Below are positions 36,844-52,090 of a stretch of DNA of 64,000 nucleotides, piece by piece. The DNA is from Candidatus Shapirobacteria bacterium (GTDB taxonomy: Bacteria > Patescibacteriota > Microgenomatia > UBA12405). The position numbers and the translations under genes are program-made. The stretch's first letter is position 1; each line of letters opens with the position of its first letter. The DNA lies in the NCBI GenBank assembly GCA_028704885.1, contig JAQWEN010000001.1, positions 587,107 through 651,106 of the forward strand, read 5' to 3'. The notes below the pieces were generated by a model, which saw only the letters and a program-made list of their open reading frames with translations, did not search any database and was not told the DNA's origin.

Positions 36844-37560
36844 TTATTTAGTAGTTGCTGATGGAGTGGCGGTTGGAGTGATTTTTTTAGCTGAAATAGT
36901 TGCTGTTGGAGTAACAGTCTTAGTCGGAGTAATAGTGGCGGATTTAGTGGCAACGGTTGGAGTGGCACAGGCTTTTTCGGTGCAAGTAATAATATCTTTA
37001 GACTCACAACTGCAAGTATTACAGCCATCGGCTGAAGCAAAAGATTCTCCTATTTGGTAAGTTTTATCATTTAAAAAGCAGGTACCAGAAACCAAAGTTG
37101 GGGAAGTTTCAATGGTATCAAAACTGGAAGAATCAGAATTATCTGTATTTTTTTGGTCTTTTAAGAAAACAAAAGCAAGGGCAACAGCGACAAAAAGAAA
37201 AATAATTAGAGCAATTATAAAAATAGCTTTAAAAAAGCCACCACCAGATTTGACTGGAACAGAAATACCAAGATTTTGGAGTTGTTCTTCTGGTGATTTT
37301 GGCGGAGTTTCGATTGGGGGAAGTTTGTCAGTGTTGGCAGAATATTGATTTAAAACCTGTTGATAATTATTGGAGGGAGCCGAGGTTTCTGGTTGGGGTT
37401 GAAGTTCTGGTTCTGGAGTGATTTCTATTTCTGGACGAGGTGGTACTTCGACAGGCTCAGTATTGACAGGTTCTTGAGGAACTGGCTCGGGATTAATAAT
37501 TGGAGTTTGATTAATAGGATCTTGATTTGGGATTTGATTTTCCATGTAATAGTTTCCCAC
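36844..37560 (-). CDS. hypothetical secreted/membrane protein: Pro-rich N-terminus, TM helix, small 6-Cys domain, Thr-rich tail
   Basis: PEPVPQEP repeats; TM FFKAIFIIALIIFLFVAVALAFVFL; cysteine pattern C-x18-C-x2-C-x-C-x8-C-x5-C. Confidence 0.5.
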   Translation of the reverse strand: MGNYYMENQIPNQDPINQTPIINPEPVPQEPVNTEPVEVPPRPEIEITPEPELQPQPETSAPSNNYQQVLNQYSANTDKLPPIETPPKSPEEQLQNLGISVPVKSGGGFFKAIFIIALIIFLFVAVALAFVFLKDQKNTDNSDSSSFDTIETSPTLVSGTCFLNDKTYQIGESFASADGCNTCSCESKDIITCTEKACATPTVATKSATITPTKTVTPTATISAKKITPTATPSATTK

Positions 37561-37585: not shown

Positions 37586-38752
37586 TTGATAGAATTGGGG
37601 ATGAAATTTTTTATTAAAACATTTGGATGTATCCAAAACACGGCTGATTCAGAACGAATTAAGGCTTTTTATTGGAATAAAGGATACAAAGAAGTTGATA
37701 ATTGGCGAGAAGCTGATTTGGTGGTTATAAACACCTGTATTATCAGAGAATCGGCAGAGAATAGAGTGTACGGATTGATTAATGAAATCGATAAATGGAA
37801 TCGAAACCCACCTGCCCTGCGGGCACCCTCCCTTGACAAGGAGGGCTTAAAAAAAATTAGTATTGTAGTTACGGGGTGTTTGGCAGGATTGGCAAATAAA
37901 GATAAAACTGGGAAAAAGTTGGCGCAATTAAAAAGAGATTTTCCCGAAGTTTCGGAATTTTTACCGATTGAAAAAATCAGTTATAAAATTGATCCCATTA
38001 GGGATAAAAAAGATTTAGCATTAATTCCAATTAGTTTTGGCTGCAGTAATTTTTGTAGTTATTGTATTGTCCCCTTTGCCAGAGGTCCAGAAATTTCTCG
38101 ACCAATGGAAGAAATTTTAAAAGAAATTGATGTAGTGATTAAAAATGGATTTAAAGAAGTGTTATTAATTGGACAAAATGTGAATTCATATCTCAATCCA
38201 AAACCCCTCTTTAATTCTCCCCTTGATGAAAGGGAGAACACTAATTACGTTGTACATATGGGCAAAAAAAGACTTCATAGTTCGTTTCATATTTTATTGG
38301 AAGAAGTAGCCAAAAAAGATTTGCAAAAAATTTCTTTTGTCAGCAGTAACCCTTGGGATTTTTCTGATGAATTAATTGCCACAATTGCTAAATATCCAAA
38401 TATTGATCGCCTTTTACATTTGCCTTTTCAAGCTGGTGATGATGAAGTGCTTAAAAAAATGAATCGAGGATATACTCAAAAAGAATATTTAGACCTAGTC
38501 AAGAAGATCAGATCTCAGATTTCAGATGTCAGATTTTCAACAGATATAATTATTGGTTTTCCTGGTGAAGATGAAAAGGCTTTTCAGAATACAGTGAAAT
38601 TGTGTAAAAAAGCAAAATTTGAAATTGCTTATTTAAATAAATATTCTCCCAGAAAAGGGACTGTGTCGGCAAAATTATATAAGGACGAGATCCCTCAGAG
38701 TGAAAAGAAAAGACGATGGAATGTATTAAATGATTTGATTAACAAAAAGTAA
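37586..38752 (+). CDS. MiaB/RimO-like radical SAM methylthiotransferase (start probably MKFFIKTFGC); no C-terminal TRAM domain
   Basis: UPF0004 N-domain (FGCIQN), radical SAM CSNFCSYC. Confidence 0.75.
   Translation: MIELGMKFFIKTFGCIQNTADSERIKAFYWNKGYKEVDNWREADLVVINTCIIRESAENRVYGLINEIDKWNRNPPALRAPSLDKEGLKKISIVVTGCLAGLANKDKTGKKLAQLKRDFPEVSEFLPIEKISYKIDPIRDKKDLALIPISFGCSNFCSYCIVPFARGPEISRPMEEILKEIDVVIKNGFKEVLLIGQNVNSYLNPKPLFNSPLDERENTNYVVHMGKKRLHSSFHILLEEVAKKDLQKISFVSSNPWDFSDELIATIAKYPNIDRLLHLPFQAGDDEVLKKMNRGYTQKEYLDLVKKIRSQISDVRFSTDIIIGFPGEDEKAFQNTVKLCKKAKFEIAYLNKYSPRKGTVSAKLYKDEIPQSEKKRRWNVLNDLINKK
38711..38748 (+). repeat. 38 bp direct repeat, left copy (3' end of the MiaB-like CDS)
   Basis: AGACGATGGAATGTATTAAATGATTTGATTAACAAAAA, identical to 40083-40120. 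Confidence 0.85.
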
Positions 38753-38768
38753 AAATCATTTTTGCTTA

Positions 38769-39062
38769 TCATTCTATACTCAAATACTTCTTTATTTTAT
38801 CCAATTCTTCTAAGATGGAATTTAATTTTAGATTGGTTAAATTAACTTCATTTTCATCATTTTGGAAAAACATACCAATAGGTTGATTGGTAATTTCGGA
38901 AATTCTTTTAAGAGTAGGAATCGGAGGGATGGCGCGACCAGATTCGTAAGCACTAATGGTTTTATCAGATATGGAAAGTCTGTCGCCAAGCTCTTTTTGC
39001 GACAATTTAGCCAATTTTCTGGCTCGATTTATGGCTTTACTTAATGCTAAAACTTCGTTCAT
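38769..39062 (-). CDS. XRE-family helix-turn-helix transcriptional regulator (97 aa)
   Basis: HTH LSQKELGDRLSISDKTISAYESGR. Confidence 0.8.
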   Translation of the reverse strand: MNEVLALSKAINRARKLAKLSQKELGDRLSISDKTISAYESGRAIPPIPTLKRISEITNQPIGMFFQNDENEVNLTNLKLNSILEELDKIKKYLSIE

Positions 39063-39162
39063 AAAATTAAACCCATTAGTTTAAAAAATGGGAGGATTTT
39101 GATTATAACACATCTATTTTTATTAGATTAAATAATATATTTAAGTATATTTAATATAATTA

Positions 39163-39179
39163 ATCTATTGTAAATAGAT
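39163..39179. promoter_or_regulatory. 17 bp palindrome ATCTATTGTAAATAGAT in divergent intergenic region (candidate operator of the XRE regulator)
   Basis: Perfect 7 bp arms around GTA, located between divergent genes. Confidence 0.35.
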
Positions 39180-39356
39180 CAAAATAGTGTATTATTGGGT
39201 TAAGAATAAATTTATTGTTCAAAAATAAATTTAATACGCACCTTGACCAAAAAACAACAAAAAACTTACAGAACAATAAGCTGTTCTGAATAAAGTTTTT
39301 TGTCTATATAGAACCAATCTACGGTGTCGAAAACAAAACACCAGAAAGGCAATGCT

Positions 39357-39578
39357 ATGAACGGTCCTCGAGGTACTCTTTATCATCCCGACATGGGCAA
39401 CAACATCGAAAGCTCTGTCACTTTCAGAAGAGACGGATCTGCTCATCAAACAGTCTATGATCGTGACGGTGGCGGCCGCTATTCATGGGATGAGCGTGCA
39501 GATGGCACAGCCAGCGATCCTCATTTCACTGATCAAGACGGCAGAAATGAACGCGACAGGCACCCATTTGGTCGATGA
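39357..39578 (+). CDS. hypothetical small protein (73 aa) encoded in a conspicuously GC-rich (~50%) segment; longest ORF starts at GTG 39324
   Basis: AGAAAGG RBS 7 nt before ATG 39357; Asp/Gly/Arg-rich; contains GCGGCCGC; followed by a double hairpin and T-run. Confidence 0.4.
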   Translation: MNGPRGTLYHPDMGNNIESSVTFRRDGSAHQTVYDRDGGGRYSWDERADGTASDPHFTDQDGRNERDRHPFGR

Positions 39579-39616
39579 CCAAACAAAAATCTGCACTATC
39601 GATTAGTGTATTTTAT

Positions 39617-39702
39617 GGAGATAAATGATAAATTTAATCATAATTTATCTCCAGATGGAGGTTATTTATAATAATAATTAACCTCCATTCTCCCTTTTTT
39701 TT
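39617..39702 (+). terminator. tandem hairpins (10 bp and 8 bp perfect stems) followed by T8
   Basis: GGAGATAAAT...ATTTATCTCC and GGAGGTTA...TAACCTCC then CCCTTTTTTTT. Confidence 0.55.
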
Positions 39703-39708
39703 AAAAAT

Positions 39709-40080
39709 ATGCCAAAAATTTATTCAAATAAAAAAACTATAAACATTCCTTTTCCAAATAAAGTCTTTGATCTTTATCTTGATAAATTTAAGGTGAAATC
39801 AGAAGGTGAATTGAATGATCAAAATATCTTTTTTATTATTAAAGACTGTTATAAAGATTTTAAAGAGGGATCTTTATCTTTAGATAATTTTTCCAGTATT
39901 GGAGGATATCTTTTTGATAAATTAAAACCCAGTTCTAAATCCAGTAAATTTGGATCTGTTTTATTAGATATTGGTGAGTTAAATTTCTATGTCAGAAATA
40001 CAGAATCAAAACCAAAATTTTCAGAAATAAATAACTTTCTTTCAGATATTGAAGAATTTTTTGAAAAATACGAAAATTGA
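39709..40080 (+). CDS. hypothetical protein (123 aa)
   Basis: ORF only; no RBS; ends 2 nt before the right direct repeat. Confidence 0.35.
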   Translation: MPKIYSNKKTINIPFPNKVFDLYLDKFKVKSEGELNDQNIFFIIKDCYKDFKEGSLSLDNFSSIGGYLFDKLKPSSKSSKFGSVLLDIGELNFYVRNTESKPKFSEINNFLSDIEEFFEKYEN

Positions 40081-40082
40081 AG

Positions 40083-40120
40083 AGACGATGGAATGTATTA
40101 AATGATTTGATTAACAAAAA
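40083..40120 (+). repeat. 38 bp direct repeat, right copy (duplicated 3' end of the MiaB-like gene)
   Basis: Identical to 38711-38748; the flanks are degenerate. Confidence 0.85.
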
Positions 40121-40126
40121 ATAATT

Positions 40127-40894
40127 TTATTGAACTGCATTCTGAGCAGTGATGGATTCGAAGAAGAAGGAAGGAATTTGATAAATATTTCTGGTTTTAA
40201 TTTGAGTTTTAACTCCGTCGCCGGCAGTACCTACAGCAGTTAATTCTTCACCCTGAAGGGGAAATACGGAAGAACCAGATAAAGTTAAATTAGTAGAAGA
40301 ACCTAATGGAGTAACTACCAGTAATAAGGCATCTTCAGTCCCAATCGGAAAATTAATAGTTTTACTGGCACTGTAGGTATAGCCAGTAACAGCAGGAGCG
40401 GTATTACTAAAATTGTAACCAGAACGGCTAACACTATAGTTAGTACCAACTCTAGAATAATAATCTATTTTAACTGCACCAGTAAAAGTATCATCCACTT
40501 TCAAACTTAAAGTAGTACTTTTTGAGTAATAAACACTATCGATAGTACCATCATTATTATGGTTAACTAACCAAAATAATTGAGGAGTATTGGATGAAAC
40601 TTTACCTTCAGAAGTAAGACTGTTAGCATTACCGATAGATAAAGAACTGACGACGGCACTATTACCATCACCAGGATTATATTGAGTATTATTATTTAAA
40701 AGATAATTATTAATTCCGGATTCAGCAGTATTAAAAGCTTCTTTTAATAATTCTTCGTCAGTATCAACTTTAGTATCAGTAACTGTCTTGCGGGAAGCAG
40801 ACATACCCAAGGTTAAAAGAATAGCAGAGGCCAAAAGAACAATGATGGCAATTTGACCTTGGTTGGATTGATTATTTTTTATTTTGTTTGTCAT
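40127..40894 (-). CDS. PilX-like N-terminal-domain protein (minor pilin-like); start MTNKIK with GGGGGAA RBS (ORF track extends to 40915 via TTG)
   Basis: N-terminal hydrophobic segment followed by ...EELLKEAFNTAESGINNY resembling the PilX_N AEAG motif. Confidence 0.4.
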   Translation of the reverse strand: MTNKIKNNQSNQGQIAIIVLLASAILLTLGMSASRKTVTDTKVDTDEELLKEAFNTAESGINNYLLNNNTQYNPGDGNSAVVSSLSIGNANSLTSEGKVSSNTPQLFWLVNHNNDGTIDSVYYSKSTTLSLKVDDTFTGAVKIDYYSRVGTNYSVSRSGYNFSNTAPAVTGYTYSASKTINFPIGTEDALLLVVTPLGSSTNLTLSGSSVFPLQGEELTAVGTAGDGVKTQIKTRNIYQIPSFFFESITAQNAVQ

Positions 40895-40896
40895 GT

Positions 40897-43611
40897 TTAG
40901 TTCCCCCATTGCCAATTAGTTAAAACTTTGGCTAAAGATCCAGGAAGATTGAAAATCATTTGAGGATTATGATTAACAACTACGGCTGGATTTAAATTAT
41001 TATTTGATCCGCCTAGATCTCGACCGGAAAAATTAATATCACTAGCGGCATAAAGACTGCCATTAAAAGTTAAGGCAGTGGTATTGGTACCAGCAGCGGT
41101 AATATTGTTGGCAACTAAAATGCCATCGACTTGGGTGACATTGTTGGCAATAGAAATGTTGCCGCTAACAATTATCATTAAGAAGTTTCCACTTTTTAAT
41201 ATATTTCCATTAATAGTTAAATTACCATTAACAAAGAAAATATTATTAGGATCGGAACCAAGATCACTAAGACTGGTTATAGTTTTATCTCCTGTCAAAA
41301 TTGTACCAATACTGTTTTTGTTGTGATATTGACTGAGGAAGTAATTATAATTAGTATTATTAATAACTAATTTAGCAGCGGCAGATTGATAGTACCAAGC
41401 TTGAGCATTACTAAGTGGATCGCGACCAGCGTTACTAATATTAGGAGCGGAAATTAAACCACTGGGACTGATTTTACAATTGGCAGTGGTACAGGTAACC
41501 GGAACTCGATTGGCAATTCCAAAATTACTAACCACTCCACCACCAACCGTCTGCCACCAGGGATCTTGATTAACCACACCAGAAAAATCAACTGTCAATG
41601 AAACACTAGAGTCATAAGGACTAATTGGAGAGGTGCCAGTTAAAGCGATGTTTGACTGACAACTGGAGTTTCCATTAAATCTCATTTTTATAGTAGACTC
41701 ATTCATTTTTATATCATCATTAAAATCTAGAGTATAACTTTTACCCCAAACTAAATCATTTCCAGTACTGGAAAAGGAATGTAAAGAAGTAAGAGTCATA
41801 TTTTTATCGCCGGCAGCCGCATTTTTAAAAGTCAAATTCTTAAAATTAATATCATTAACATAACTGCTAAAACCAATAGAAGGAGAAGGACAATAAACAG
41901 ATGGGTTAGCACCACTGCCATCAAAAATATTTCCAGAAACAGGAACATTACAATTCCAATATTTGAATGAACGATTAGTATCAGTGGTAACGACAGAACC
42001 AGTATAAACATTAACATCAGAAGCTGAAACAGTGATTTTTTGTAAATCGGTCGAAGAAATCTGAGCTGTAGTGATATCAAAAATAGCTGTGACATTATTA
42101 CCGCTTCTACTGATTGATGAATAATTAAATACTTGAGAGCCAAGAGTTAATTGAATATTATTAATATCGGCTCCACCCTGAGCATCAGAATAAGTCACTA
42201 CAAATCTGGCCGTAGTCGGACTGGAAGTACTCGTAAAATCTGATTGACAAATATGATTACGATTATCAGTTTCAGCCGCAACTACAGTATTATTAATATT
42301 TTCAATTACTAAGGTGGAAAAAGCTGGAGGATTATCCCGAACAGCAGAACAAGGAGTATCTAATGTCTGAGCAGCAACACAAGTACCATTAGAACCACTG
42401 CAAGTCCACTTGTATAATCCATCAGATCCAATATTATCTGTCCAATTTATTGTGCCGACAGCACATAAGTTTGAAGCCGGAAGAGAAGAATAAGTGCCAC
42501 CATTAGCAGTTCCGCAAGCACCAATAATGTTATTAACCGGCGTTTTAGTACCAGTACAAGTTCCGCCACAACCATCATCAAAAGTCTGATCAGGGCAGTA
42601 ATCTCCGGAAATTGAACAATCAGCTGGACATTGTTTAACACAACGACATTTAGCTGCATTGGCACCAGAACCAGTACACAACCCAGTTAAATAAACTGGA
42701 TTAGAATAATTGGCTGGATCATCACAATTTCCTCCAAAAGCAGCACAAGTGGCCGCATCGGCTGAACTTCGAGATTCACAAACAAAAGAAGGGGTAATTG
42801 GAATTCGACAAAGACAAGCTGAAGTACTGGGACAAAGACCTGACTTAGTGGTGGTGTTGGCAATGGCAGTCGTACTGCAAGTTCCACCAGCATTAGCACA
42901 AGCCCCACCGGCAGGAGTGTAACAACCAGAAGAAGATGTTCCACAATCAGTGGAACAATAGGAAGAATTTAAACCGGGATTTTTACAACATCTACCAGCA
43001 CCACATACATTATCATTTTCACAAATAATAGTATAATTGTTTATATTTTTTTTATAACATTGCTGCGAGCTATTTCCACAGGGTCTACATCGATTATAAC
43101 TGTACCAACAATCGCCGGTAGGCTCATTTCCCCAAGCCGCGTCACAACTGCTATACCAACCAGCAGAATTATTACAATACAAATTACCAACACAACCAGA
43201 ACCGCCTTTCTTCCAAACATTATCACCAAGACAATTACAATAAGAATCTGAGTGCCACTTACATAGCCCAGTACTATTTCCACCTGGTAAAGGATCAAAA
43301 AGATGACCAGGTTCAGCTACTGTCGAATCAGCCCAACTTGTCCAGGCATAACAAGCAGAGGCTCCAGTTTCAAAACAAGCTGCAGAAGTAATACCATTTA
43401 CACCAGCAGCATAATCAATACCATTAAGGCCATGACAACCAGTAAATACACACTCGGCCTCAGGGCAAGAAGAACTGGAATAGGAAATAGTATAACCGGT
43501 AGGACAGTTTTCATAAATATTAATGCAATAAGCAGAGACATCATCTCTAAAGAGAAAAAAACTTGTGAATAAAAAAACTAAACAAAATAATATTTTTTTA
43601 ATTATGGACAT
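40897..43611 (-). CDS. large secreted protein (904 aa): signal peptide, ~430 aa extremely Cys/Gly/Ser/Thr/Asn-rich region, C-terminal parallel beta-helix-like repeats
   Basis: N-terminus MSIIKKILFCLVFLFTSFFLF; dozens of Cys; C-terminal N/G/T-rich repeats (NGNLTINGNILKSGNF...VANNITAAG). Confidence 0.6.
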   Translation of the reverse strand: MSIIKKILFCLVFLFTSFFLFRDDVSAYCINIYENCPTGYTISYSSSSCPEAECVFTGCHGLNGIDYAAGVNGITSAACFETGASACYAWTSWADSTVAEPGHLFDPLPGGNSTGLCKWHSDSYCNCLGDNVWKKGGSGCVGNLYCNNSAGWYSSCDAAWGNEPTGDCWYSYNRCRPCGNSSQQCYKKNINNYTIICENDNVCGAGRCCKNPGLNSSYCSTDCGTSSSGCYTPAGGACANAGGTCSTTAIANTTTKSGLCPSTSACLCRIPITPSFVCESRSSADAATCAAFGGNCDDPANYSNPVYLTGLCTGSGANAAKCRCVKQCPADCSISGDYCPDQTFDDGCGGTCTGTKTPVNNIIGACGTANGGTYSSLPASNLCAVGTINWTDNIGSDGLYKWTCSGSNGTCVAAQTLDTPCSAVRDNPPAFSTLVIENINNTVVAAETDNRNHICQSDFTSTSSPTTARFVVTYSDAQGGADINNIQLTLGSQVFNYSSISRSGNNVTAIFDITTAQISSTDLQKITVSASDVNVYTGSVVTTDTNRSFKYWNCNVPVSGNIFDGSGANPSVYCPSPSIGFSSYVNDINFKNLTFKNAAAGDKNMTLTSLHSFSSTGNDLVWGKSYTLDFNDDIKMNESTIKMRFNGNSSCQSNIALTGTSPISPYDSSVSLTVDFSGVVNQDPWWQTVGGGVVSNFGIANRVPVTCTTANCKISPSGLISAPNISNAGRDPLSNAQAWYYQSAAAKLVINNTNYNYFLSQYHNKNSIGTILTGDKTITSLSDLGSDPNNIFFVNGNLTINGNILKSGNFLMIIVSGNISIANNVTQVDGILVANNITAAGTNTTALTFNGSLYAASDINFSGRDLGGSNNNLNPAVVVNHNPQMIFNLPGSLAKVLTNWQWGN

Positions 43612-44774
43612 AATAAATTAACCAATAATGCGTTTTGAAGAAGACTCTTTGACCAAATATTACGTTCTTCAATTAGAAAAAAGCCGCCTTCACCGTTTAA
43701 TTTTCTAAAACTGCCATCACCATCCCAATATTTGGAAATAAAGACACTTAAAAGTTTTTCTTCACTAGACTGATATTTTGAGTTGTTATCATATTTAGCC
43801 AATTCCCGATTTAAAAAGGCACATTCAAGATTCATTCCTTCAGATTTTGCCCCCTGATCTGTAAAATAAAGACTATAAACATCTTTAGCCCAATCAAGAT
43901 ATTTTTGTTCTTTATTGACCGAATATAAATCTAATGAAGAAATAGCTAATAAACATTTATCATTGGCTGAAAAATTAACATAATCCAGATAATATCCCTG
44001 AAGGAGCTTATTAAAATAAGCATTGGCAACATCTAAATCATTCTGTTTTTGGCTGGACTTATATCGAGCCACGAAGTCACTCGGAAAAGTAACAAACCAT
44101 TTATAGTTCTGATTAATACTCTGGTCGCTTTTGAAAACTAAATCTTTCGTTTTATCAGGATTTTGCCAATCATAATAATCAACCTGAGAAATTACATTAA
44201 TATCAGACTTTGTCTTTTCACTATATATATTTTTTACTTCATCACTACTGATATAAGTGCTAGTCGTACAAAGCTTATGAACTTTATCAAGATATTCCTG
44301 ACTTAAAATTTTTTGATCAGTTATTTCCAAAAGCAATCGACAGTTCCAAAAATTATTTTGAACCTGCATCTTATCAAGCTGTTGGTAATAATAATCAATA
44401 TCTTTTTTAAGAATAGAAATTTCATCTGTATCACCAGTTTTTTGGATATATTTATATCTGGCCCAAATGGCAGGAATGGCATCATGACCACTTAAACCAG
44501 CCTCTTGAGGGCCATTACAAGTTTTTTTTTCAAAATCGCAGTCAATAAAACCAAAATATTTTCCATTTTCGTCTCTTTTGGAATTAATCCAAGTCAATGT
44601 TTTCTTGGCATAGCCACAATATTTCTTTTCAGCAGCAGTAAACTTGTTTTTAGGGCTAAGATCTTTTTTAAACAAACCAATTTTATTACCAATAAAAATA
44701 AAACCAACCGAAACAATTACTATCAAAAAAATCGAAACTATTTGAAGCAAACTAAAACCTTTTTTTGTGTCCAT
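43602..44774 (-). CDS. type IV pilin-like protein with class III (prepilin) signal (390 aa)
   Basis: MDTKKG/FSLLQIVSIFLIVIVSVG matches the KG-FxLxE prepilin cleavage pattern with Q at +5. Confidence 0.45.
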   Translation of the reverse strand: MDTKKGFSLLQIVSIFLIVIVSVGFIFIGNKIGLFKKDLSPKNKFTAAEKKYCGYAKKTLTWINSKRDENGKYFGFIDCDFEKKTCNGPQEAGLSGHDAIPAIWARYKYIQKTGDTDEISILKKDIDYYYQQLDKMQVQNNFWNCRLLLEITDQKILSQEYLDKVHKLCTTSTYISSDEVKNIYSEKTKSDINVISQVDYYDWQNPDKTKDLVFKSDQSINQNYKWFVTFPSDFVARYKSSQKQNDLDVANAYFNKLLQGYYLDYVNFSANDKCLLAISSLDLYSVNKEQKYLDWAKDVYSLYFTDQGAKSEGMNLECAFLNRELAKYDNNSKYQSSEEKLLSVFISKYWDGDGSFRKLNGEGGFFLIEERNIWSKSLLQNALLVNLLCP

Positions 44775-44819
44775 CTAATGAAACTATAAAGCATTTCAGA
44801 AAAAATTCAATTATTTGTT

Positions 44820-45950
44820 TTATTTAAGATCACCAGGATTCCAATCAGGCATGGATTTTCTATTTTTATTAATCTCATCGGCAGTACCGCCAAAAAAATC
44901 AACTAAACCTTCCTTAAATATTTTTTCAAATGAAACTTGAATTGTTTCGGATCTAAAAGGTTGGGAATATTTTTCTCCATAACGGACCTTGGCACCTATA
45001 TAACCAGCATGAGCCATTTCCTTACAAAATTGTTGACCGTTTTTACAATATAAATTCCACCAGCAATAAGCAGATAAACCTTCCTTAAAATAACCTGGAT
45101 ATTTAGCAAATTCTCCTCCCAAATTAAGCATCTTAATACCTACAGATTCTATATATAATGGTCCTCCTAATAAAGTATTCATATATGGAATTTCCGACTT
45201 TAAACCTTCTTTTGATAGATTCCAAACAAATTGACCTTCTTCATTGTAGGTGTAAACAAAACCCGATTTTTCATTAAATCGATTAATAATAAAAGATCTC
45301 ATACCATTATCTGTCAATAGTTTAAGATAATTCGAATCGTAAACTTCCATTTCTTTAATAGCTTTTTTGAAACCAGAGACAACATTATCCTGACAATTAA
45401 TCATAGCTATGGCTGGACTGCCATCTTTATGACTAATAATTGAAAAATTTTCAATATTACTATATTCTCCGGTTTTACCATATTCAATAATCTGCTCTCG
45501 AGTTAAATAATCATCCACCTTATTAAATTCATCTTCATTAGAAGATAAAGAATTTTCGTATATTTTTAATAAATCTTTGGTAAATTGAAGTCTTTCGGCA
45601 GGAATGCCGTCTAATTCTGATTTAGTTTCAGTGGTTGTCGGGGTAGGAGTGGGTTCAGGGGTAGGAGTGGGAGCCTCGGTATTATAAATAGTTTCAGTTG
45701 GAGTTGGATTTAAGGTGTCACTAGCAGCTATTGGAGCAACACCATAATCGCCACCTTCAGGTCCAAACAATTTACTTGAACCAACATAAACACCGGCAGC
45801 AACCACAGTTCCTGCAAGACCAACAGAAATAGCTTTAACTAAATTCACTCTATGACTTTTGTGTTCATCTTCATGATGACCTTGATGTAAACCTTTTTGA
45901 ACATCTGGGTGTTTCATTACACCTTGTCCTGTTTCGACTGTATTTATCAT
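44820..45950 (-). CDS. hypothetical membrane-anchored protein (376 aa) with His-rich N-terminus, TM helix, Pro/Thr linker
   Basis: TM LVKAISVGLAGTVVAAGVYVG; PTPTPEPTPTPTTT linker. Confidence 0.5.
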   Translation of the reverse strand: MINTVETGQGVMKHPDVQKGLHQGHHEDEHKSHRVNLVKAISVGLAGTVVAAGVYVGSSKLFGPEGGDYGVAPIAASDTLNPTPTETIYNTEAPTPTPEPTPTPTTTETKSELDGIPAERLQFTKDLLKIYENSLSSNEDEFNKVDDYLTREQIIEYGKTGEYSNIENFSIISHKDGSPAIAMINCQDNVVSGFKKAIKEMEVYDSNYLKLLTDNGMRSFIINRFNEKSGFVYTYNEEGQFVWNLSKEGLKSEIPYMNTLLGGPLYIESVGIKMLNLGGEFAKYPGYFKEGLSAYCWWNLYCKNGQQFCKEMAHAGYIGAKVRYGEKYSQPFRSETIQVSFEKIFKEGLVDFFGGTADEINKNRKSMPDWNPGDLK

Positions 45951-45988
45951 TTTTTCTAGATTTTATTATAACCTATAATCTAGTAAGA

Positions 45989-46017
45989 ATTATATCGTTT
46001 ATAGTTAATTTTGTCAA
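45989..46017 (-). promoter_or_regulatory. perfect-consensus sigma70 promoter (TTGACA-17 nt-TATAAT, minus strand) for the 45950-40127 operon
   Basis: Reverse complement of 45989-46017 = TTGACAAAATTAACTATAAACGATATAAT; 5' UTR contains the TCTAGATT...AATCTAGA inverted repeat. Confidence 0.5.
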
Positions 46018-46226
46018 TGTTTACCGTTGTATCTGATATAGTACACATTTATTACACACTGGCCGTATAATTTTAATATGTATCGATTACACATTAATTA
46101 CTGTGATTTTAGGTACAAAATGACAGTGGAAATTAGATTAATTATTAATTAATATAAAACAATCAGTTGCGATATATATTAGAGCAGATAGATATTGATG
46201 TTTCGCCTTTTATTCGGTTCTAGTTG

Positions 46227-46254
46227 TTGACAGAGTAGATTACTCTAGTATTAT
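46227..46254 (+). promoter_or_regulatory. sigma70-like promoter (TTGACA-16 nt-TATTAT) ending 6 nt before the KilA-N start (leaderless-type arrangement)
   Basis: TTGACA 46227-46232, TATTAT 46249-46254, ATG 46261. Confidence 0.4.
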
Positions 46255-46260
46255 TTTGGT

Positions 46261-47076
46261 ATGAAAAAAATAATTACACAGGGAATACAGATTGCTGTTA
46301 TAAAAAATAACAAAGAAGAATATATTTCTTTAACCGATATGGCTAAGTTCAAAAACCGTGAACTAACTGGAATTGTTATTGCTAATTGGCTATCAACTAA
46401 ATATACTATTCAGTTTATTGGAGCTTGGGAACAAGTTAATAACCCAAATTTTAATGTTATGGAATTCAATAACATTAAAAATGAAGCCGGATCTAATGGT
46501 TTTATATTATCTTCTTCTAAATTGATTCAAAAAACAAATGCCATTGGTATTAGATCATCCACGGGTAGATATGGAGGTACTTTTGCTCATCGCGATATTG
46601 CTTTTGAATTTGCCACTTGGCTATCTCCCGAATTTAAGCTTTATTTAATTAAAGAATTTCAAAGATTAAAAATTGAGGAAAATGAAAGATTAGCTCTTGG
46701 TTGGGATGTTAAAAGACAGTTGACTAAAATTAATTATCGTATTCACACAGATGCTATTAAAGAAAATTTAATTCCTGTTTCAATCACTAATAATCAGGCC
46801 AAAATTATTTATGCCAATGAAGCTGATGTTCTTAATATGGCCCTTTTTGGTAAAACTGCTAAAAATTGGCGAGAGGAAAACAAAAATAAAGAAGGCAATA
46901 TTCGTGATTATTGTGATGTTACCCAATTAGTAGTTTTAGCTAATCTTGAGGGGATAAATGCTGATTTAATTCATCAAAATTTATCTCAATCAGAAAGATT
47001 GATTAAGTTAAACCAAATAGCCATTTATCAGATGAGATCATTGATTGGTAATCCGTCTATTAAAAAATTGAAGTAA
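46261..47076 (+). CDS. KilA-N domain-containing protein
   Basis: YISLTDMAKF...GRYGGTFAHRDIAFEFATWLSPEFKLYLIKEFQRLK matches KilA-N/APSES-type DNA-binding proteins of phages. Confidence 0.75.
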   Translation: MKKIITQGIQIAVIKNNKEEYISLTDMAKFKNRELTGIVIANWLSTKYTIQFIGAWEQVNNPNFNVMEFNNIKNEAGSNGFILSSSKLIQKTNAIGIRSSTGRYGGTFAHRDIAFEFATWLSPEFKLYLIKEFQRLKIEENERLALGWDVKRQLTKINYRIHTDAIKENLIPVSITNNQAKIIYANEADVLNMALFGKTAKNWREENKNKEGNIRDYCDVTQLVVLANLEGINADLIHQNLSQSERLIKLNQIAIYQMRSLIGNPSIKKLK

Positions 47077-48012
47077 TTATTTCAGATAGTTGGCGATGTT
47101 GGAGTTGTGCTGATCAAGAGTGGCGGCATAGTGCATTTGATTGTCATTGCCGGTAAGGTAGTAAAGATAATTTGATTCGGTGGGATGAAAAGCGGCATAA
47201 ATTGAATCATAGCCAGGGTTACAAATGGGGCTGGGCGGAAGACCGGGATTTTTATAGGTATTAAAAGGAGAAAGAATAGAAATATCGGCAGCGTCTAAAT
47301 CTACCCAATATTTGGCTGGTTTCTCTTTAGAATCGCGGGCATATTGAACGGTAACATCTGATTGGAGAGGCATATTTATATTAATTCTATTCATTAAAAC
47401 GCCAGCAACCCCCTGTTTTACTTTTAAAGTTCGAGCTTCGTGTTCAATAATGGAAGCTAAAACCAAAATTTGTTTGTCGGTTAGTTTGGTATTGGTGGCA
47501 TCGACTTTGGCTTGGGCAAATTTTTTATCAAAATTAGTTTCAATAACTTTGAAAATTTGATCGGCGGTGTAAAAAGTGGGGATTAAATAACTGTCGGGAA
47601 AAAGATAGCCTTCTTTGCCAGTAAAAGAAGTTCCTTTAGGAAAAGAATCAATGTTTTCTTCGACACGAGTGCCTTCGATGATTTTTAACCAATAATCACT
47701 GACGCCGCCTTTGGAAAGTTTGGTAATTAAATCCTGATTAGACAAGGAAGGAGAAATACGGAAAGTCCCCGCTTGAATTTTACTATTTAATCCCAATTTA
47801 TAGGCATAAAATAAAAAGGAATATTTATTCCTAATTAAGGATTTTGATTTTAAATTTTGGGAAATATTTACCAAACTGTCACCCTCTTTGATAACAAACA
47901 TAATATTGTTTTTATCGGTAGAAACAGCTTGACTGTTGATTTTTAGATAGGAAAAAATGACCGCTAATAAAATAGCGACAGAAAGGGTGATAATTGTAAA
48001 AACCCGAGCCAT
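47077..48012 (-). CDS. mltG: endolytic murein transglycosylase MltG/YceG-like
   Basis: N-terminal TM anchor + YceG domain sequence. Confidence 0.75.
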   Translation of the reverse strand: MARVFTIITLSVAILLAVIFSYLKINSQAVSTDKNNIMFVIKEGDSLVNISQNLKSKSLIRNKYSFLFYAYKLGLNSKIQAGTFRISPSLSNQDLITKLSKGGVSDYWLKIIEGTRVEENIDSFPKGTSFTGKEGYLFPDSYLIPTFYTADQIFKVIETNFDKKFAQAKVDATNTKLTDKQILVLASIIEHEARTLKVKQGVAGVLMNRININMPLQSDVTVQYARDSKEKPAKYWVDLDAADISILSPFNTYKNPGLPPSPICNPGYDSIYAAFHPTESNYLYYLTGNDNQMHYAATLDQHNSNIANYLK

Positions 48013-48014
48013 TT

Positions 48015-48212
48015 TTAGATCTCGTCGAATAAAGCTCGACGATAAGTGCCCTTAGCACCGTCGTAAATAAAAATACGACCACACTTGCAGGTGACAGTGG
48101 TTTTGTCTCTGACATCTTTTTTGACACCATGAGAAAGTGGAGTACCACAACCAACACATCGACCTTGTGATAATAACCAGGCTTGGATGGGGGAAATTAG
48201 ATTTTTGATCAT
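48015..48212 (-). CDS. small zinc-ribbon protein (65 aa)
   Basis: CVGCG...CKCG cysteine pairs. Confidence 0.45.
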   Translation of the reverse strand: MIKNLISPIQAWLLSQGRCVGCGTPLSHGVKKDVRDKTTVTCKCGRIFIYDGAKGTYRRALFDEI

Positions 48213-48227
48213 AATTTTATTAAATTA

Positions 48228-48614
48228 TTAACCGACTATTCTTCTTAAGATAACTGCGGCAGCCACCGAATCAATTAATTTCTTATAATCTTTCTTTTTA
48301 TTCTTGTTTTGAATGTAAATTTGCTGAGCTTCGATGGTGCTGACAGCTTCTTCAACTGTCTCGATATTTAATTTTAACACAGAACGAAGCTTGTCGACGA
48401 AGGCCTTGGTAATATCAGCAAAATAGCCTTCAGAAACACCAACGTAAAGACCATCAATTTTATAATCAGCAATAATTTTTTGAAGATTGGCAATAACTTG
48501 ATCGTCGTTTTTAATGGCAGGAATGGGAGTGATGATATCAAGAATGGAAACAGCCAAACCAATGTTTTTAGTACCGTAATCGATGGCGAGATAGTTCATA
48601 GAAAGATTATACAT
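48228..48614 (-). CDS. ruvX: Holliday-junction resolvase-like RuvX/YqgF
   Basis: LAIDYGTKNIGLAVS N-terminal motif (start may be the internal MNYLAIDYG). Confidence 0.75.
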   Translation of the reverse strand: MYNLSMNYLAIDYGTKNIGLAVSILDIITPIPAIKNDDQVIANLQKIIADYKIDGLYVGVSEGYFADITKAFVDKLRSVLKLNIETVEEAVSTIEAQQIYIQNKNKKKDYKKLIDSVAAAVILRRIVG

Positions 48615-48663
48615 TATTAACCCACCCCAACCCCTCCCTTGACAAGGAGGGTTAAAATTATAT

Positions 48664-49206
48664 ATGTCATCAAAACGAGGCCCTTGGAGAGTAATCGATG
48701 TTAAAAATGTTTACAAAAATTCGTGGATTGAAGTAAAAGAAGATAAGGTGATTAGGCCTGATGGAAATAAAGGAATTTTTGGAGTAGTAAAAGTAAAATC
48801 GGGAGTATCAGTATTACCCATCGATGATAATAAAAATATTTATTTAATTGAACAATTTAGATATGTTTTGGGGAAAAAAAATATTGAAGCAGTTAGTGGT
48901 GGTATAGAAAACAAAGAAAAACCTCTAGACGCTGCTAAAAGAGAACTTAAAGAGGAAACTGGTATTGAAGCAAAAGAGTGGGTGGATTTGGGTAAAATTA
49001 ATCCACTTACAATAATAGATTCAACAAATTATCTTTTTATCGCTAAAAATTTGACTTTTTTAAACGCAAGTCCTGAAGGAACTGAAAACATTAAACTACT
49101 GAAAATACCTTTAGAAAAAGCAATTAACTGGGTTATGGAAGGATTAATTACTAACTCTCTCACAGCACTTTTGATTTTAAAAATAAAAGAGTTAAAAAAT
49201 TCTTAA
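48664..49206 (+). CDS. NUDIX hydrolase
   Basis: Nudix box GGIENKEKPLDAAKRELKEETGI. Confidence 0.8.
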   Translation: MSSKRGPWRVIDVKNVYKNSWIEVKEDKVIRPDGNKGIFGVVKVKSGVSVLPIDDNKNIYLIEQFRYVLGKKNIEAVSGGIENKEKPLDAAKRELKEETGIEAKEWVDLGKINPLTIIDSTNYLFIAKNLTFLNASPEGTENIKLLKIPLEKAINWVMEGLITNSLTALLILKIKELKNS

Positions 49207-49922
49207 TTAACTGCAAGGCTGGATTTGATGATGAGGCGGCGGAGATAGGTGCCAGGGGGGCTACAAGTTATAAGAGTAAGATTTTTTTGATCGAAACGCT
49301 GCTCAAGAACTGAAAGATCGGTAGGTTTGACTTCAAACATTTCATCGACAATGTATTTGTATTGGACGCTATCATAGTCAATAATTATTTCATCGCCCTG
49401 CTCAAGTTTATAAAGAGTAGAAAAAATAGTTAAATAGGATTTTGGATTGAAAAATTGAGGTAAAACGGAATGACCGAAAACAACAGCATTACCAAGTTGT
49501 CCAGGAAGAGCGGTTTGAGGATATTGAATTAAACTTTTTTTTAAGTCCATACTGCCAATAGTAACAACAGCATCTTTAATTTTTAATTTGGGAATAGATA
49601 TTTTATAAGTGGAATTATTATCATTGGAAAAAAGTTGATTATTATCACTGGAATCAGCGATAAACCAATTATTAATTTGAGTGTAATCGGTAGTAACGGC
49701 GCCCAAAATATTTTGAGAACCGTTGTAAGATTTTAGAGATAAAGGATTAATCATCTGACTGAAACTAAGAGAAGATTGAAGCTGAAATTTAAGGATAGGA
49801 AAAATAGCTGAAAGGAAAAAAAATAGACCGACAACCATGAGAAGGATGGCTAAATTTTTCTTTTTAGCAAAAAACCTACTTTTTGGGGAGGGTGGTGATT
49901 TTTTAAGATAAAGATAGCTCAC
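49203..49922 (-). CDS. sortase-family transpeptidase
   Basis: N-terminal TM; catalytic His (VVFGHSV), TLxTC (LTLITCSPPG) and Arg. Confidence 0.75.
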   Translation of the reverse strand: MSYLYLKKSPPSPKSRFFAKKKNLAILLMVVGLFFFLSAIFPILKFQLQSSLSFSQMINPLSLKSYNGSQNILGAVTTDYTQINNWFIADSSDNNQLFSNDNNSTYKISIPKLKIKDAVVTIGSMDLKKSLIQYPQTALPGQLGNAVVFGHSVLPQFFNPKSYLTIFSTLYKLEQGDEIIIDYDSVQYKYIVDEMFEVKPTDLSVLEQRFDQKNLTLITCSPPGTYLRRLIIKSSLAVN

Positions 49923-52090
49923 GGCGATTCATTTTTAACTTCAATAAAAATATTTTTGGGGCTAAAAGGCAAAATATTGAAAATTTTAAAAGTAATTTTT
50001 AAATTATAGTCGTAAACTCGACTAATAGTTTTTTTAATTATCTCTTGAGCTTTTTTGGTAGTCCTACCAGAAATGTTTTTCTTGAGCAATTCGGTATCAA
50101 TTTTAGGTAAAGAAGAGCCTTTAATATTTAAACTGCCGGTAGCTTTATTAGTATCTAATTTGTCGATTTTTAGGGTGAAAACAAAAGAATCAGGATTTAT
50201 TTCTGAATCAGAATAACCGGTCTCTTTGGATAAAAATTGAGCTAAAATTTTATCTTTTAATTCGTTCTTGAAAACAAAAACACTAACTGTAGATTCGGCA
50301 GAGGCGGTTAAATCATCGGTTTCCTCCCCGACTTCACGATTAAGCTCAGTTTTGCCTTTTTTGGTTTGAATAGTTTCTTCAATGGCATCGTTTGAAGTAT
50401 TAAAATCCTGATTTATTTTTTGATCCGCTTCTTCTTTAAGTTTTATAGCCAATTGAGATTCGGCATTAACTTTGTCCTGCTGGCTGACAGCACTAATTTG
50501 ATCTTTAGTGCCACCAGTAAAATCGACATTACTTTTAACAACAATGGATGTTTCGGGGAAATCTTTAAATCTTAAGACAGAATCCTTGGAAATATTAAAT
50601 TCTGGACCAATATCGGAAGCAGAAATAACGGTTTTTACTTGACCAAAATTCATAGTGCCGGTTTCAAAATTGGAACTACTGGAAGCAATTTGGACGGCGT
50701 TAATTAATTCAAAATTTTGATTTTTGGAATCAATTAAAATTGATCCTTTGGGAATATTTTGAACTTTTTCGACTTTATTAAAAATCGTAACTTCACCAGT
50801 GGCTTTATTGCCAACAGTTTTTTGACCAGTAGTTTTTACGGTAACAGAAGAATTAACAGTTATATTTTTTTTGTCGACAGGAATAATTGAAGAAGTAAGA
50901 TCAGCAGCATCAGAATCAAGGGTAATATTAATAGTTTTGTCGAATTCATAGGGAGTAACAAAAAGAATTAAATTGGCTTTGGAAAGTAAAAGAGGAAGAA
51001 GGAGAATAATTAAGACGGCAGGAAAAATAAATAATAAATATTTATTTTTTAATTTGGGTAATTTAAAATTTATTTTTGGGAGCTTAAAAGAAATTGGTTT
51101 TTTTTCTTCTTCAAAACCCTTCTCCACCAAAGGCGGATTCTCCCCTTGATGTAGGGGATAAATTATTTCTGGTTTAGGTAAATCTTTAATAAAACCTAAA
51201 TCTTCAAAAGGAACTTCTTCTAAATTTTCTTCGGGAATTTCGGCTGCTTCTGGCATTTCTTCAACTTCTTCCAAATCTTCAACTGTTTTTATTTCTTCTT
51301 TTTCCTCTGGTTCTTCAATTTCTGGTGACTCAACTGGAGGTACAGCTTGATGACTAGGATTTCCACCACCAATCATTTGGGAAGTAATGGCTTTGAAAAA
51401 AATATTTATCAAATCGTGATCTTGATAAAGTTTAATCTCGGGAAAATGGAGAAAAGTTTCAATATTTTTTTTACCAACCCAAGGAAAATTTTTAAGATTT
51501 TCAATAATTGAATCGTTAACTTGGCCGTAAACATAAATTTGAGGAGGAAGAGTTGATTCCAAATTTAACTCTAACAAAGAATCTTCGACAAGCTGGGCAT
51601 TAAAATCACCATCAAAAACTTTTCTGATTCGATTTTTAATTTTACCAAGATAAATTAGAGATAATTCGAAGGCGTTTGATTCTAAATAAAGATTGATAAA
51701 ACTGGCGGGAAAATCGTCTGGTTTGTTGGATTCTTCAATAATGGCTTCGTCGTTAGACATAAAACCGGATGGTTTTAAATCGAGTTCTTTTAAAAGAGGC
51801 AAAATAACATCGGATCTTTCTTTGGTAATTTTGCCGTCTTGGCCAACCCAGGATGAAGGAATGACTAAGCCAACAAAAATCGGTTCTTGATCTTCGGAAA
51901 TGTCGGCACTAGCGGCAGCACTAGAGAGAGATTCATCGGCGGCTTTTAAAATTGATTGATGATTGTTAATATCACATTCAACTCGAGGGCCAATTGAGGC
52001 GACATAATAGCGGCCATTACCCCAGTTAATTAGAGAAACCAAAATACTGTCGGCTTCAATATAAAATAGCCAAAAACTATTAATACCCAT
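49919..52090 (-). CDS. large membrane protein (723 aa): FtsA/PilM-like actin-fold N-domain (weak), acidic linker, TM helix, large extracellular region
   Basis: N-terminus FWLFYIEADSILVSLINWGNGRYYVASIGPRVECD; EEPEEKEE linker; TM LLFIFPAVLIILLLPLLLS; 4 nt overlap with sortase gene. Confidence 0.5.
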   Translation of the reverse strand: MGINSFWLFYIEADSILVSLINWGNGRYYVASIGPRVECDINNHQSILKAADESLSSAAASADISEDQEPIFVGLVIPSSWVGQDGKITKERSDVILPLLKELDLKPSGFMSNDEAIIEESNKPDDFPASFINLYLESNAFELSLIYLGKIKNRIRKVFDGDFNAQLVEDSLLELNLESTLPPQIYVYGQVNDSIIENLKNFPWVGKKNIETFLHFPEIKLYQDHDLINIFFKAITSQMIGGGNPSHQAVPPVESPEIEEPEEKEEIKTVEDLEEVEEMPEAAEIPEENLEEVPFEDLGFIKDLPKPEIIYPLHQGENPPLVEKGFEEEKKPISFKLPKINFKLPKLKNKYLLFIFPAVLIILLLPLLLSKANLILFVTPYEFDKTINITLDSDAADLTSSIIPVDKKNITVNSSVTVKTTGQKTVGNKATGEVTIFNKVEKVQNIPKGSILIDSKNQNFELINAVQIASSSSNFETGTMNFGQVKTVISASDIGPEFNISKDSVLRFKDFPETSIVVKSNVDFTGGTKDQISAVSQQDKVNAESQLAIKLKEEADQKINQDFNTSNDAIEETIQTKKGKTELNREVGEETDDLTASAESTVSVFVFKNELKDKILAQFLSKETGYSDSEINPDSFVFTLKIDKLDTNKATGSLNIKGSSLPKIDTELLKKNISGRTTKKAQEIIKKTISRVYDYNLKITFKIFNILPFSPKNIFIEVKNESP

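Follow-up and report, generated by a model that had tools for sequence, protein, structure and literature searches.

A three-gene islet flanked by att-like repeats at the 3' end of miaB in a Candidatus Shapirobacteria genome

In a genome of Candidatus Shapirobacteria, a lineage of the candidate phyla radiation (CPR), a segment of 1,372 bp has been inserted at the 3' end of the gene miaB in such a way that the miaB reading frame is restored. The insertion was analysed within a window of 64 kb, i.e. the whole stretch of DNA under study, whose positions are used for all coordinates given here. It carries three genes, which encode a repressor of the XRE family and two small proteins of 73 and 123 amino acids, and it lies between two copies of the miaB end. 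The segment is probably a non-autonomous islet flanked by attachment (att) sites, similar to a cis-mobilizable element (CIME), which entered by site-specific recombination with a recombinase that acted in trans or has since been lost. CPR genomes are very small and gene gain and loss in these bacteria are poorly described; this locus provides a clean, datable insertion with occupied and empty sites, exact junctions and an intact target gene.

The window contains exactly two copies of the flanking repeat, the 38-nt sequence AGACGATGGAATGTATTAAATGATTTGATTAACAAAAA, which lie on the forward strand at 38711-38748 and 40083-40120, as had been noticed in a sequence-only reading of this DNA. A third copy was absent from the window with up to three mismatches allowed, and none appeared in 100 shuffles; with two copies only in the window, the repeat is not a common genomic one, which that reading had named as a way in which it could be wrong. 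The same reading took the 38-mer to be the literal last 38 nt of the coding sequence, which needs correction, as AAG TAA runs 4 nt further, to 38752. The repeat grows in register to 46 nt (38707-38752 and 40079-40124) with two mismatches (96% identity) and then includes the TAA stop codon, while a gapped local alignment with one 2-nt gap gives a repeat of about 51-53 nt with a score of 85 against a null maximum of 28. In all relatives this sequence is the conserved end of the miaB coding region, and it has no clear dyad by eye and no strong hairpin. The right-hand copy lies 2 nt from the stop codon of a convergent gene for a 262-aa protein and translates to the same RRWNVLNDLINKK followed by a stop.

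Loci from relatives were obtained by a MiaB protein scan of GTDB species representatives, which returned about 20 Shapirobacteria-type loci; these and other contigs are referred to by L numbers. In L109, the closest relative found (MiaB 89% identical), miaB is followed by 11 nt and then by a homologue of the 262-aa gene, and in L017 (MiaB 82% identical) and L022 (75%) the miaB stop stands directly before homologues of the 262-aa gene and of a 904-aa gene, with no island genes; across the three loci, 11-47 nt separate the miaB stop from the convergent 262-aa homologue. Removal of 38711-40082 in silico allowed the window to be aligned to L109 as one high-scoring segment pair of 2,047 nt at 80% identity, which runs from miaB into the downstream gene. 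Because the relatives have miaB directly followed by the 262-aa homologue, the 1,372-bp segment is an insertion, and the unoccupied site that had been anticipated in related genomes is thus present in three of them. The alternative that the miaB end was duplicated locally long ago, with genes accumulating later between the copies, explains the existence of the repeat and nothing beyond; it is contradicted by the empty sites, including that of the closest relative, by the lack of a second miaB-end copy or of any island gene at the site in all 12 of the closest species representatives, and by the perfect identity of the 38-nt core, and is extremely improbable. A duplicated 38-mer around unrelated DNA, which was the arrangement that would have spoken for such a duplication, was not found in any relative.

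The junctions carry further information on the mechanism, since both mismatches between the 46-nt copies sit at their inner edges. The left mismatch is seen in the right copy, which reads GAAGAG beside the stop of the 123-aa gene where the native sequence, as in relatives, is GAAAAG. The right mismatch is seen in the left copy, where AAG TAA leads into island DNA; in the native form, AAA TAA comes before the 262-aa gene. From the island-derived side miaB receives the same final amino acid and an in-frame stop. From this layout we infer an exchange between a site on the element (attP) and a site on the chromosome (attB), of which it is the expected pattern, rather than a target-site duplication: mismatches at the inner edges, together with an in-frame codon and stop from the element, imply that the homology pre-existed on the element and that the target was not copied.

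A duplication made by the insertion itself was also considered, either as a long target-site duplication from staggered cuts of the Cas1 type or as a single-crossover homologous recombination of a small circle carrying a miaB fragment. Cas1-type integrases duplicate CRISPR repeats via widely staggered cuts, and CPR bacteria are thought to take up DNA; the repeat here is long, and the same cargo is found between duplicated ends of different genes, namely miaB in this window and tRNA-Tyr in L094 (see below). Such an origin is nevertheless quite unlikely, given the position of the mismatches and the in-frame codon and stop contributed by the element, the lack of terminal inverted repeats (the best inverted match of the island ends was no better than shuffles, p=0.50) and a repeat length of 38-46 bp, which is near the lower limit for RecA-dependent exchange.

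The target gene, one for tRNA modification, encodes a radical-SAM methylthiotransferase, which as listed has 388 aa from a TTG start and 383 aa in the database version, P0169. The protein contains the Pfam domains UPF0004 and Radical_SAM and lacks TRAM. It matches NCBIfam TIGR00089 with E=2.5e-97 over model positions 1-360 of 429; its score of 308.7 lies below the MiaB equivalog cut-off of 355.3, and its score of 326.4 above the MiaB/RimO subfamily cut-off of 251. TRAM-less MiaB proteins with the same cut-off behaviour are found in relatives, so the missing TRAM is not due to the insertion, and as MiaB stops at the corresponding ...RRWxxLNxLINxx position in every relative, the insertion has not truncated the gene.

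Two GC-rich palindromes also lie within miaB, in frame in two variable loops of the protein, CCCTCCCTTGACAAGGAGGG at 37826-37846 (..PSLDKEG..) and TCTCCCCTTGATGAAAGGGAGA at 38217-38240 (..SPLDERE..), the second of which is within a stretch absent from the closest relative, L109. Other strains have different short inserts at the same two loops, one protein (P0174) having an SDVRSQ motif in both, and similar hairpins are present in the intergenic DNA of L006 and L108 and after miaB in L018. These palindromes look like tiny palindromic elements able to insert in frame into coding sequences.

Table 1. Features of the islet, its target gene and its right flank (window positions)
Feature	Position	Strand	Remarks
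miaB, target gene	37586..38752	+	MiaB/RimO-family radical-SAM methylthiotransferase without TRAM
attL-like repeat copy	38707..38752	+	perfect core 38711-38748; functional last 14 codons and stop of miaB
XRE-family helix-turn-helix (HTH) regulator, 97 aa	38769..39062	-	HTH_3 E=5.5e-13; HTH_19 E=6.3e-13
Divergent regulatory region, 294 nt	39063..39356	.	alignment with L006 and L095
GC-rich gene for 73-aa protein	39357..39578	+	ATG at 39357; alternative GTG start at 39324 would give 84 aa
Three hairpins between the cargo genes	39592..39690	+	kept in 7 loci, no compensatory changes
Gene for 123-aa protein	39709..40080	+	all-helical bundle protein
attR-like repeat copy	40079..40124	+	perfect core 40083-40120; displaced ancestral miaB end
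Native downstream neighbour, 262-aa protein	40127..40915	-	first gene met of pilin-like operon; right flank of empty site

The components listed for the islet in the sequence-only reading, i.e. the XRE repressor on the minus strand, a GC-rich small open reading frame, tandem hairpins and a 123-aa reading frame, are all present (Table 1). The three genes are real and conserved, and are under purifying selection, with dN/dS ratios of 0.07 for the XRE gene, 0.05-0.12 for the 73-aa gene and 0.16-0.48 for the 123-aa gene. Matches of the XRE protein in PHROG, PADLOC and NCBIfam are all restricted to the HTH, and a homologue with 79% identity occupies the same position of the module in L006. The 73-aa gene stands out by its GC content, 0.47-0.51 versus about 0.2-0.33 around it. 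It is a protein gene and an RNA interpretation of the GC-rich stretch was rejected, as Rfam gave nothing credible in the whole window (at the gathering threshold) or in the island (E up to 5) and ARAGORN found no tRNA or tmRNA in the window. Its product has 12 homologues, all on Shapirobacteria-type contigs, with 33 invariant residues (e.g. in GGGRYSW, HFTDQD and RHPFGR), and is predicted by AlphaFold2 to form a four-stranded beta meander (predicted local distance difference test score, pLDDT, 67).

The 123-aa protein has 20 close homologues, and an exhaustive profile search recovered 137 clusters. Its AlphaFold model is a confident helical bundle (pLDDT 84, predicted template modelling score, pTM, 0.78), which matches designed and generic bundles only and no viral structure. 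Neither of the two small proteins was assigned to a family in Pfam, NCBIfam, PHROG or PADLOC, and IMG/VR contains no relative of either; searches with PDB sequence profiles yielded no significant match, and the models no informative fold match. No family annotation for the 123-aa protein came from Pfam searches with 10 longer members or from the source names of 10 clusters. Assignment to HEPN was rejected because the Rx4-6H motif is not conserved among the invariant residues, and a 109-aa accessory gene in L006 was rejected as a paralogue of the family (hhalign probability 0.1). The 73-aa and 123-aa genes form a novel gene pair, lineage-restricted and strongly conserved.

The regulatory region between the divergent genes contains the 17-bp palindrome ATCTATTGTAAATAGAT at 39163-39179, which had been put forward as an operator candidate. 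The palindrome exists, but in the related loci L006 and L095 it is not conserved. Both loci do keep a 27-bp palindrome (39207-39233), which a conserved GCACCTTGACC motif closely follows; being conserved, this palindrome is the preferred operator candidate over the poorly conserved 17-bp one. Also conserved are the hairpin CAGAACAATAAGCTGTTCTG (39269-39288) and a ribosome-binding site, AGAAAGG, before the ATG of the 73-aa gene. A resemblance between the operator-like palindrome and an inverted att site was rejected as not significant (p=0.17). Between the two cargo genes, the tandem hairpins at 39616-39690 have a minimum free energy of -30.1 kcal/mol (z=-5.5), and the last of them, at 39654-39690 (GGAGGTTATTTA...ACCTCC), is followed by a run of T, which suggests a terminator or an attenuator. 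A terminator-like prediction at 39647-39662 lies across the last two hairpins (3' arm of the middle one, 5' arm of the final one), and its stem is different from the long last stem.

The 123-aa protein is also encoded on NCBI contig JAQUEN010000003.1, from the Candidatus Shapirobacteria metagenome-assembled genome (MAG) GCA_028685145.1, and on a Logan contig of 1,394 nt, L002. Both island junctions are present in the window and in the MAG contig, beyond whose end the window extends by about 23 kb. L002 leaves out the first 8 nt of the left repeat and the last 8 nt of the right one, and its length (30+1,334+30) is that of the unitig expected from a k=31 graph between two 38-nt repeat copies in the integrated form; it was therefore rejected as a circle and is uninformative about circles or excision. 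The existence of this stand-alone contig, and of many homologues on contigs of 1-1.6 kb, could be taken to mean that the assembler inserted into the chromosome a small free circle with about 40 bp in common with it. This is very improbable: the length of L002 fits a unitig broken at the repeat, two junctions are carried by both the MAG contig and the window, and the repeat of 38-46 nt is shorter than ordinary reads, so that the junctions should have been read directly. Even if true, the shared 46 bp would still indicate an att relationship.

In the explanation that we favour, a circular or otherwise recombining form would have carried the XRE gene on one strand and the 73-aa and 123-aa genes on the other, together with an attachment site placed where the 123-aa and XRE genes converge. 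Over about 46-53 bp, this site would have been homologous to the end of miaB (its last 14 codons and the stop codon). It would have recombined with the chromosomal miaB end inside the 38-bp identity. The left product (attL), with a native left arm and an element-derived stop codon, would then have become the working end of miaB, and the right product (attR), with an element-derived left arm and a native right arm, would be a non-coding remnant. The recombinase, not being encoded by the islet, would have acted in trans, supplied by a helper element or by the host, or would have been lost. Once in place, XRE may repress the divergent promoter via the conserved 27-bp palindrome, with the 73-aa gene transcribed first and attenuation at the hairpins then lowering expression of the 123-aa gene. 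For the pair itself, the most plausible role is in self-maintenance or conflict, as a module akin to toxin-antitoxin or defence systems; that the cargo acts as a toxin-antitoxin or in defence, as the sequence-only reading had offered, is a guess, and family and fold searches with the two proteins returned no known toxin, antitoxin or defence family.

A number of observations weigh against this explanation. The islet encodes no integrase, excisionase, replication or transfer gene, and the absence of an integrase between the repeats, already remarked upon, was borne out by Pfam, PHROGs, PADLOC and NCBIfam searches with the three island proteins, in which the XRE HTH was the only match. Neither a recombinase nor an excisionase, replication or transfer gene was seen in the 16 window reading frames scanned, or by Pfam among 10 genes beside the hot spot in relatives. 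The convergent stops leave about 62 nt for attP, less than would be expected of a classical tyrosine-integrase attP with its arm sites. Neither an excised circle nor a mixture of occupied and empty sites was observed, L002 being a unitig of the integrated form, and a related module between recG and rpmF in other genomes has no flanking repeat around it. The cargo proteins resemble no toxin, antitoxin or defence family, nor did fold comparison yield an informative match, and the function proposed for them draws only on neighbourhood and gene architecture. Of the claim that the DNA was integrated site-specifically into the end of a gene, the insertion and the replacement 3' end are supported by the empty sites, and the action of a site-specific recombinase stays putative, no integrase having been found in the island, among the window reading frames scanned or beside the hot spot in relatives. 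Elements integrated by the Xer system use a dif-like site of 28 bp with two half-sites and enter at the chromosomal dif; the XRE protein gave a weak match to the Xer activation factor family VC1465 (E=0.19, NCBIfam).

The lack of an integrase could also mean that the islet, as a CIME in the strict sense, is what decay has left of a larger element with its own integrase, the integrase and other genes having been deleted and attL and attR left intact. CIMEs, which keep attL and attR without integration or transfer genes, are normally decay products of this kind, and incoming elements can accrete with them (PMC5704250); tycheposon islands are likewise rich in degenerate, integrase-less pieces with partial tRNAs (bioRxiv 10.1101/2020.12.28.424599). 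The islet is, however, packed very tightly, with 16 nt between the miaB stop at attL and the XRE stop and with the TGA stop of the 123-aa gene overlapping the first bases of the right repeat, and its 1,372 bp hold no pseudogene debris, gene fragments or spare non-coding DNA between the att copies and the genes. Any deletion must have removed all else exactly up to the att site, and the perfect 38-nt identity speaks for a recent event. This packing argues against a large deletion without excluding one, and decay is a possible but less likely origin than the arrival of a non-autonomous islet. The options of a decayed element, a satellite mobilised in trans and a toxin-antitoxin or defence cargo, between which the sequence-only reading chose none, are not mutually exclusive.

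Considering whether the cargo moves, homologous pairs of 70-81-aa and 106-123-aa genes with the same hairpins are found at several unrelated sites in Shapirobacteria, so that the pair is present at unrelated loci in other genomes. Between recG and rpmF, L006 and L108 have it together with XRE and one extra gene, and L097 has it without XRE; in L096 the contig begins at the 123-aa homologue, which is followed by rpmF, and its left side is not covered. The pair stands directly after tRNA-Tyr in L094/L104 and L107, and just past the cassette of L094 the 3' end of the tRNA recurs in degenerate form (20/24 nt, p=0.0025 in a restricted test). It follows relA in L099, and in L003 a gene of the 123-aa family comes after a ribbon-helix-helix regulator and an unrelated 372-aa gene; flanking repeats were absent at the relA and L003 sites. 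In L008 and L010 the pair is one unit of an array (AbiEi/AbiEii, 79+123, Fic, 171 aa) with repeats of 84-135 nt between the units; L099 likewise counts among the contigs with such cassette arrays beside AbiE and Fic. These repeats (...GTGTTCGAAGTTTGG.A.ACTCAGCTCACTTAGGTTTAAGAAATT) are seen at 1645-4737 of L008, at 721-1574 of L010 and at the ends of L099-L102, where contigs break inside them. The L008 array begins at a truncated 3' end of a tRNA/tmRNA-like gene (t(m)RNA); TCACTTAGGT and a TTCGA motif are common to this end and the repeats (with p of about 0.004 for each copy, the copies not being independent). The link between repeats and t(m)RNA end is a weak lead, and together they may represent an array built by tandem accretion at a t(m)RNA gene.

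From this distribution the pair appears to behave as mobile cargo. A wider possibility, which we put forward tentatively, is that Shapirobacteria, and perhaps other CPR, hold a pool of recombinase-less cassettes of 1-1.5 kb with att sites copied from the 3' ends of housekeeping genes (miaB, tRNA-Tyr, t(m)RNA), shuffled among a few hot spots by a recombinase acting in trans, the 73-aa/123-aa pair being a new self-maintaining module, for toxin-antitoxin or defence, among them. Such a pool would be functionally similar to integrons or tycheposons, but built on att sites at gene ends.

The module, as 73+123 or 123 only, is also seen near pilus-like genes (262-aa, 904-aa and PilM), in three gene orders (40127-45950 of the window, 7806-12296 of L003 and 9.4-12.3 kb of L006/L097), a closeness that may be due to chance in genomes of under 1 Mb.

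The site of insertion itself is variable. In most other relatives miaB is followed by mltG, ruvX and a sortase gene, which are found at 47077-52090 in the window, where the interval between miaB and mltG (38753-47076; mltG at 47077-48012) is filled in a way that differs among Shapirobacteria species (compared with L014-L025). It contains the pilin-like operon in the window, L017, L022 and L109, nothing in L016, L018-L021 and L023, and other genes in L014, L015 and L025, and because of these differences between species the interval is a variable hot spot. A sister strain (L093/L106; 92% nucleotide identity, 123-aa protein 91-93% identical) retains the junction '...GAAAATTGA' with the miaB-like end, which is then followed by convergent abiEii-abiEi instead of the pilin-like gene. 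This suggests that different cassettes stack at the miaB end, as far as contigs of about 1.2 kb can show, and no integrase was seen on them. A degenerate third copy of the miaB end was absent from 40130-48100 of the window. Alone on the forward strand between the pilin-like operon and mltG lies a gene for a KilA-N domain protein (46261-47076, E=1e-19), a domain common in phages and mobile elements.

Measured against known systems, the segment has several of the properties by which genomic islands are recognised, i.e. repeats at its ends, with the 3' end of the target as one of them, an intact target gene and an unoccupied site in relatives; an element-encoded tyrosine or serine recombinase beside the att site is lacking. 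The closest named category would be the CIME. Like a CIME, the islet is bounded by attL and attR, the 3' end of a protein gene serving as one of the two, and lacks integration and transfer genes; other cassettes may stack at the same att site, as the sister strain suggests. CIME-type elements of ICE/IME systems (integrative and conjugative or mobilizable elements) are known at the 3' end of fda in Streptococcus thermophilus. Unlike the islet, CIMEs are decay products of such elements in Firmicutes and are mobilised by conjugative elements; the islet is only 1.37 kb, has no signs of decay and sits in a CPR host, with no conjugative elements known at the site and no integrase-bearing partner found.

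The tycheposons of Prochlorococcus provide a second parallel, in a streamlined genome where gene 3' ends are hot spots, successive integrations push older ones inward and remnants of cargo are left between partial copies of the target (bioRxiv 10.1101/2020.12.28.424599). The hot spot and the partial target copies, and perhaps the stacking, are shared, and the tRNA-Tyr and t(m)RNA contexts of the gene pair fit. Tycheposons are, however, defined by a tyrosine or serine recombinase and a replication module and target tRNA genes, whereas the islet has neither module and its target is a protein-coding gene. Phage 21 and e14 integrate in the 3' end of icd in Escherichia coli and bring an alternative 3' end with them, so that, as here, the gene is kept functional by the end supplied by the element and the old end becomes a remnant. 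These are a phage and a defective prophage of tens of kb with their own integrases, and the duplication at icd, at about 165 bp, is longer. No link to phages was found for the islet: its cargo proteins and, by exact match, its att core are absent from IMG/VR, and there is no viral fold match. It also differs from satellites of the type of P4 or the phage-inducible chromosomal islands in lacking integrase, replication and capsid-hijacking genes, and from insertion sequences and miniature inverted-repeat transposable elements in the lack of terminal inverted repeats and transposase and in a duplication of 38-53 nt.

Integron cassettes resemble the islet in their size of about 1 kb, the lack of a recombinase of their own, mobilisation in trans and occurrence in arrays, to which the L008 and L010 arrays are superficially similar; chromosomal integrons commonly include toxin-antitoxin cassettes that have promoters of their own. 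The islet differs in having no attC palindrome, no core sites and no hairpin in the repeat, which is a copy of a host gene end. The attC core motifs (GTTRRRY/RYYYAAC) were absent from both repeats, the modelled single-stranded attP folded no better than shuffles, and no intI or attI was found, the upstream neighbour being miaB. As for the cargo, tripartite toxin-antitoxin loci with a separate regulator are known as the omega-epsilon-zeta type, and the islet is similar in having a small regulator and two small co-oriented genes in a compact mobile unit, which in other genomes stands beside AbiE and Fic. It differs in that its proteins show no sequence or fold similarity to known toxins or antitoxins, and in that its regulator is divergent and not co-transcribed.

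Overall, the segment is a clear but fairly ordinary example of an integrase-less att-flanked islet; what sets it apart is its very small size, a host from the CPR and the novel conserved gene pair that it carries. The comparison establishes the miaB-mltG interval as a hot spot in this lineage, and the gene pair seems to travel between hot spots alongside AbiE and Fic cassettes. Should a recombinase acting in trans be found, such islets would be among the smallest att-bearing mobile units known and would provide a handle on gene flow in uncultivated episymbionts; if there is none, the islet stays an ordinary integrase-less one.

Upstream of miaB, on the reverse strand at 36844-37560, lies a gene for a proline-rich protein of 238 aa with a cysteine-rich C-terminal domain, which weakly resembles Pacifastin/VWC (E=7e-6, below the Pfam cut-off). 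This protein is conserved but fast-evolving, with 33-71% identity in relatives.

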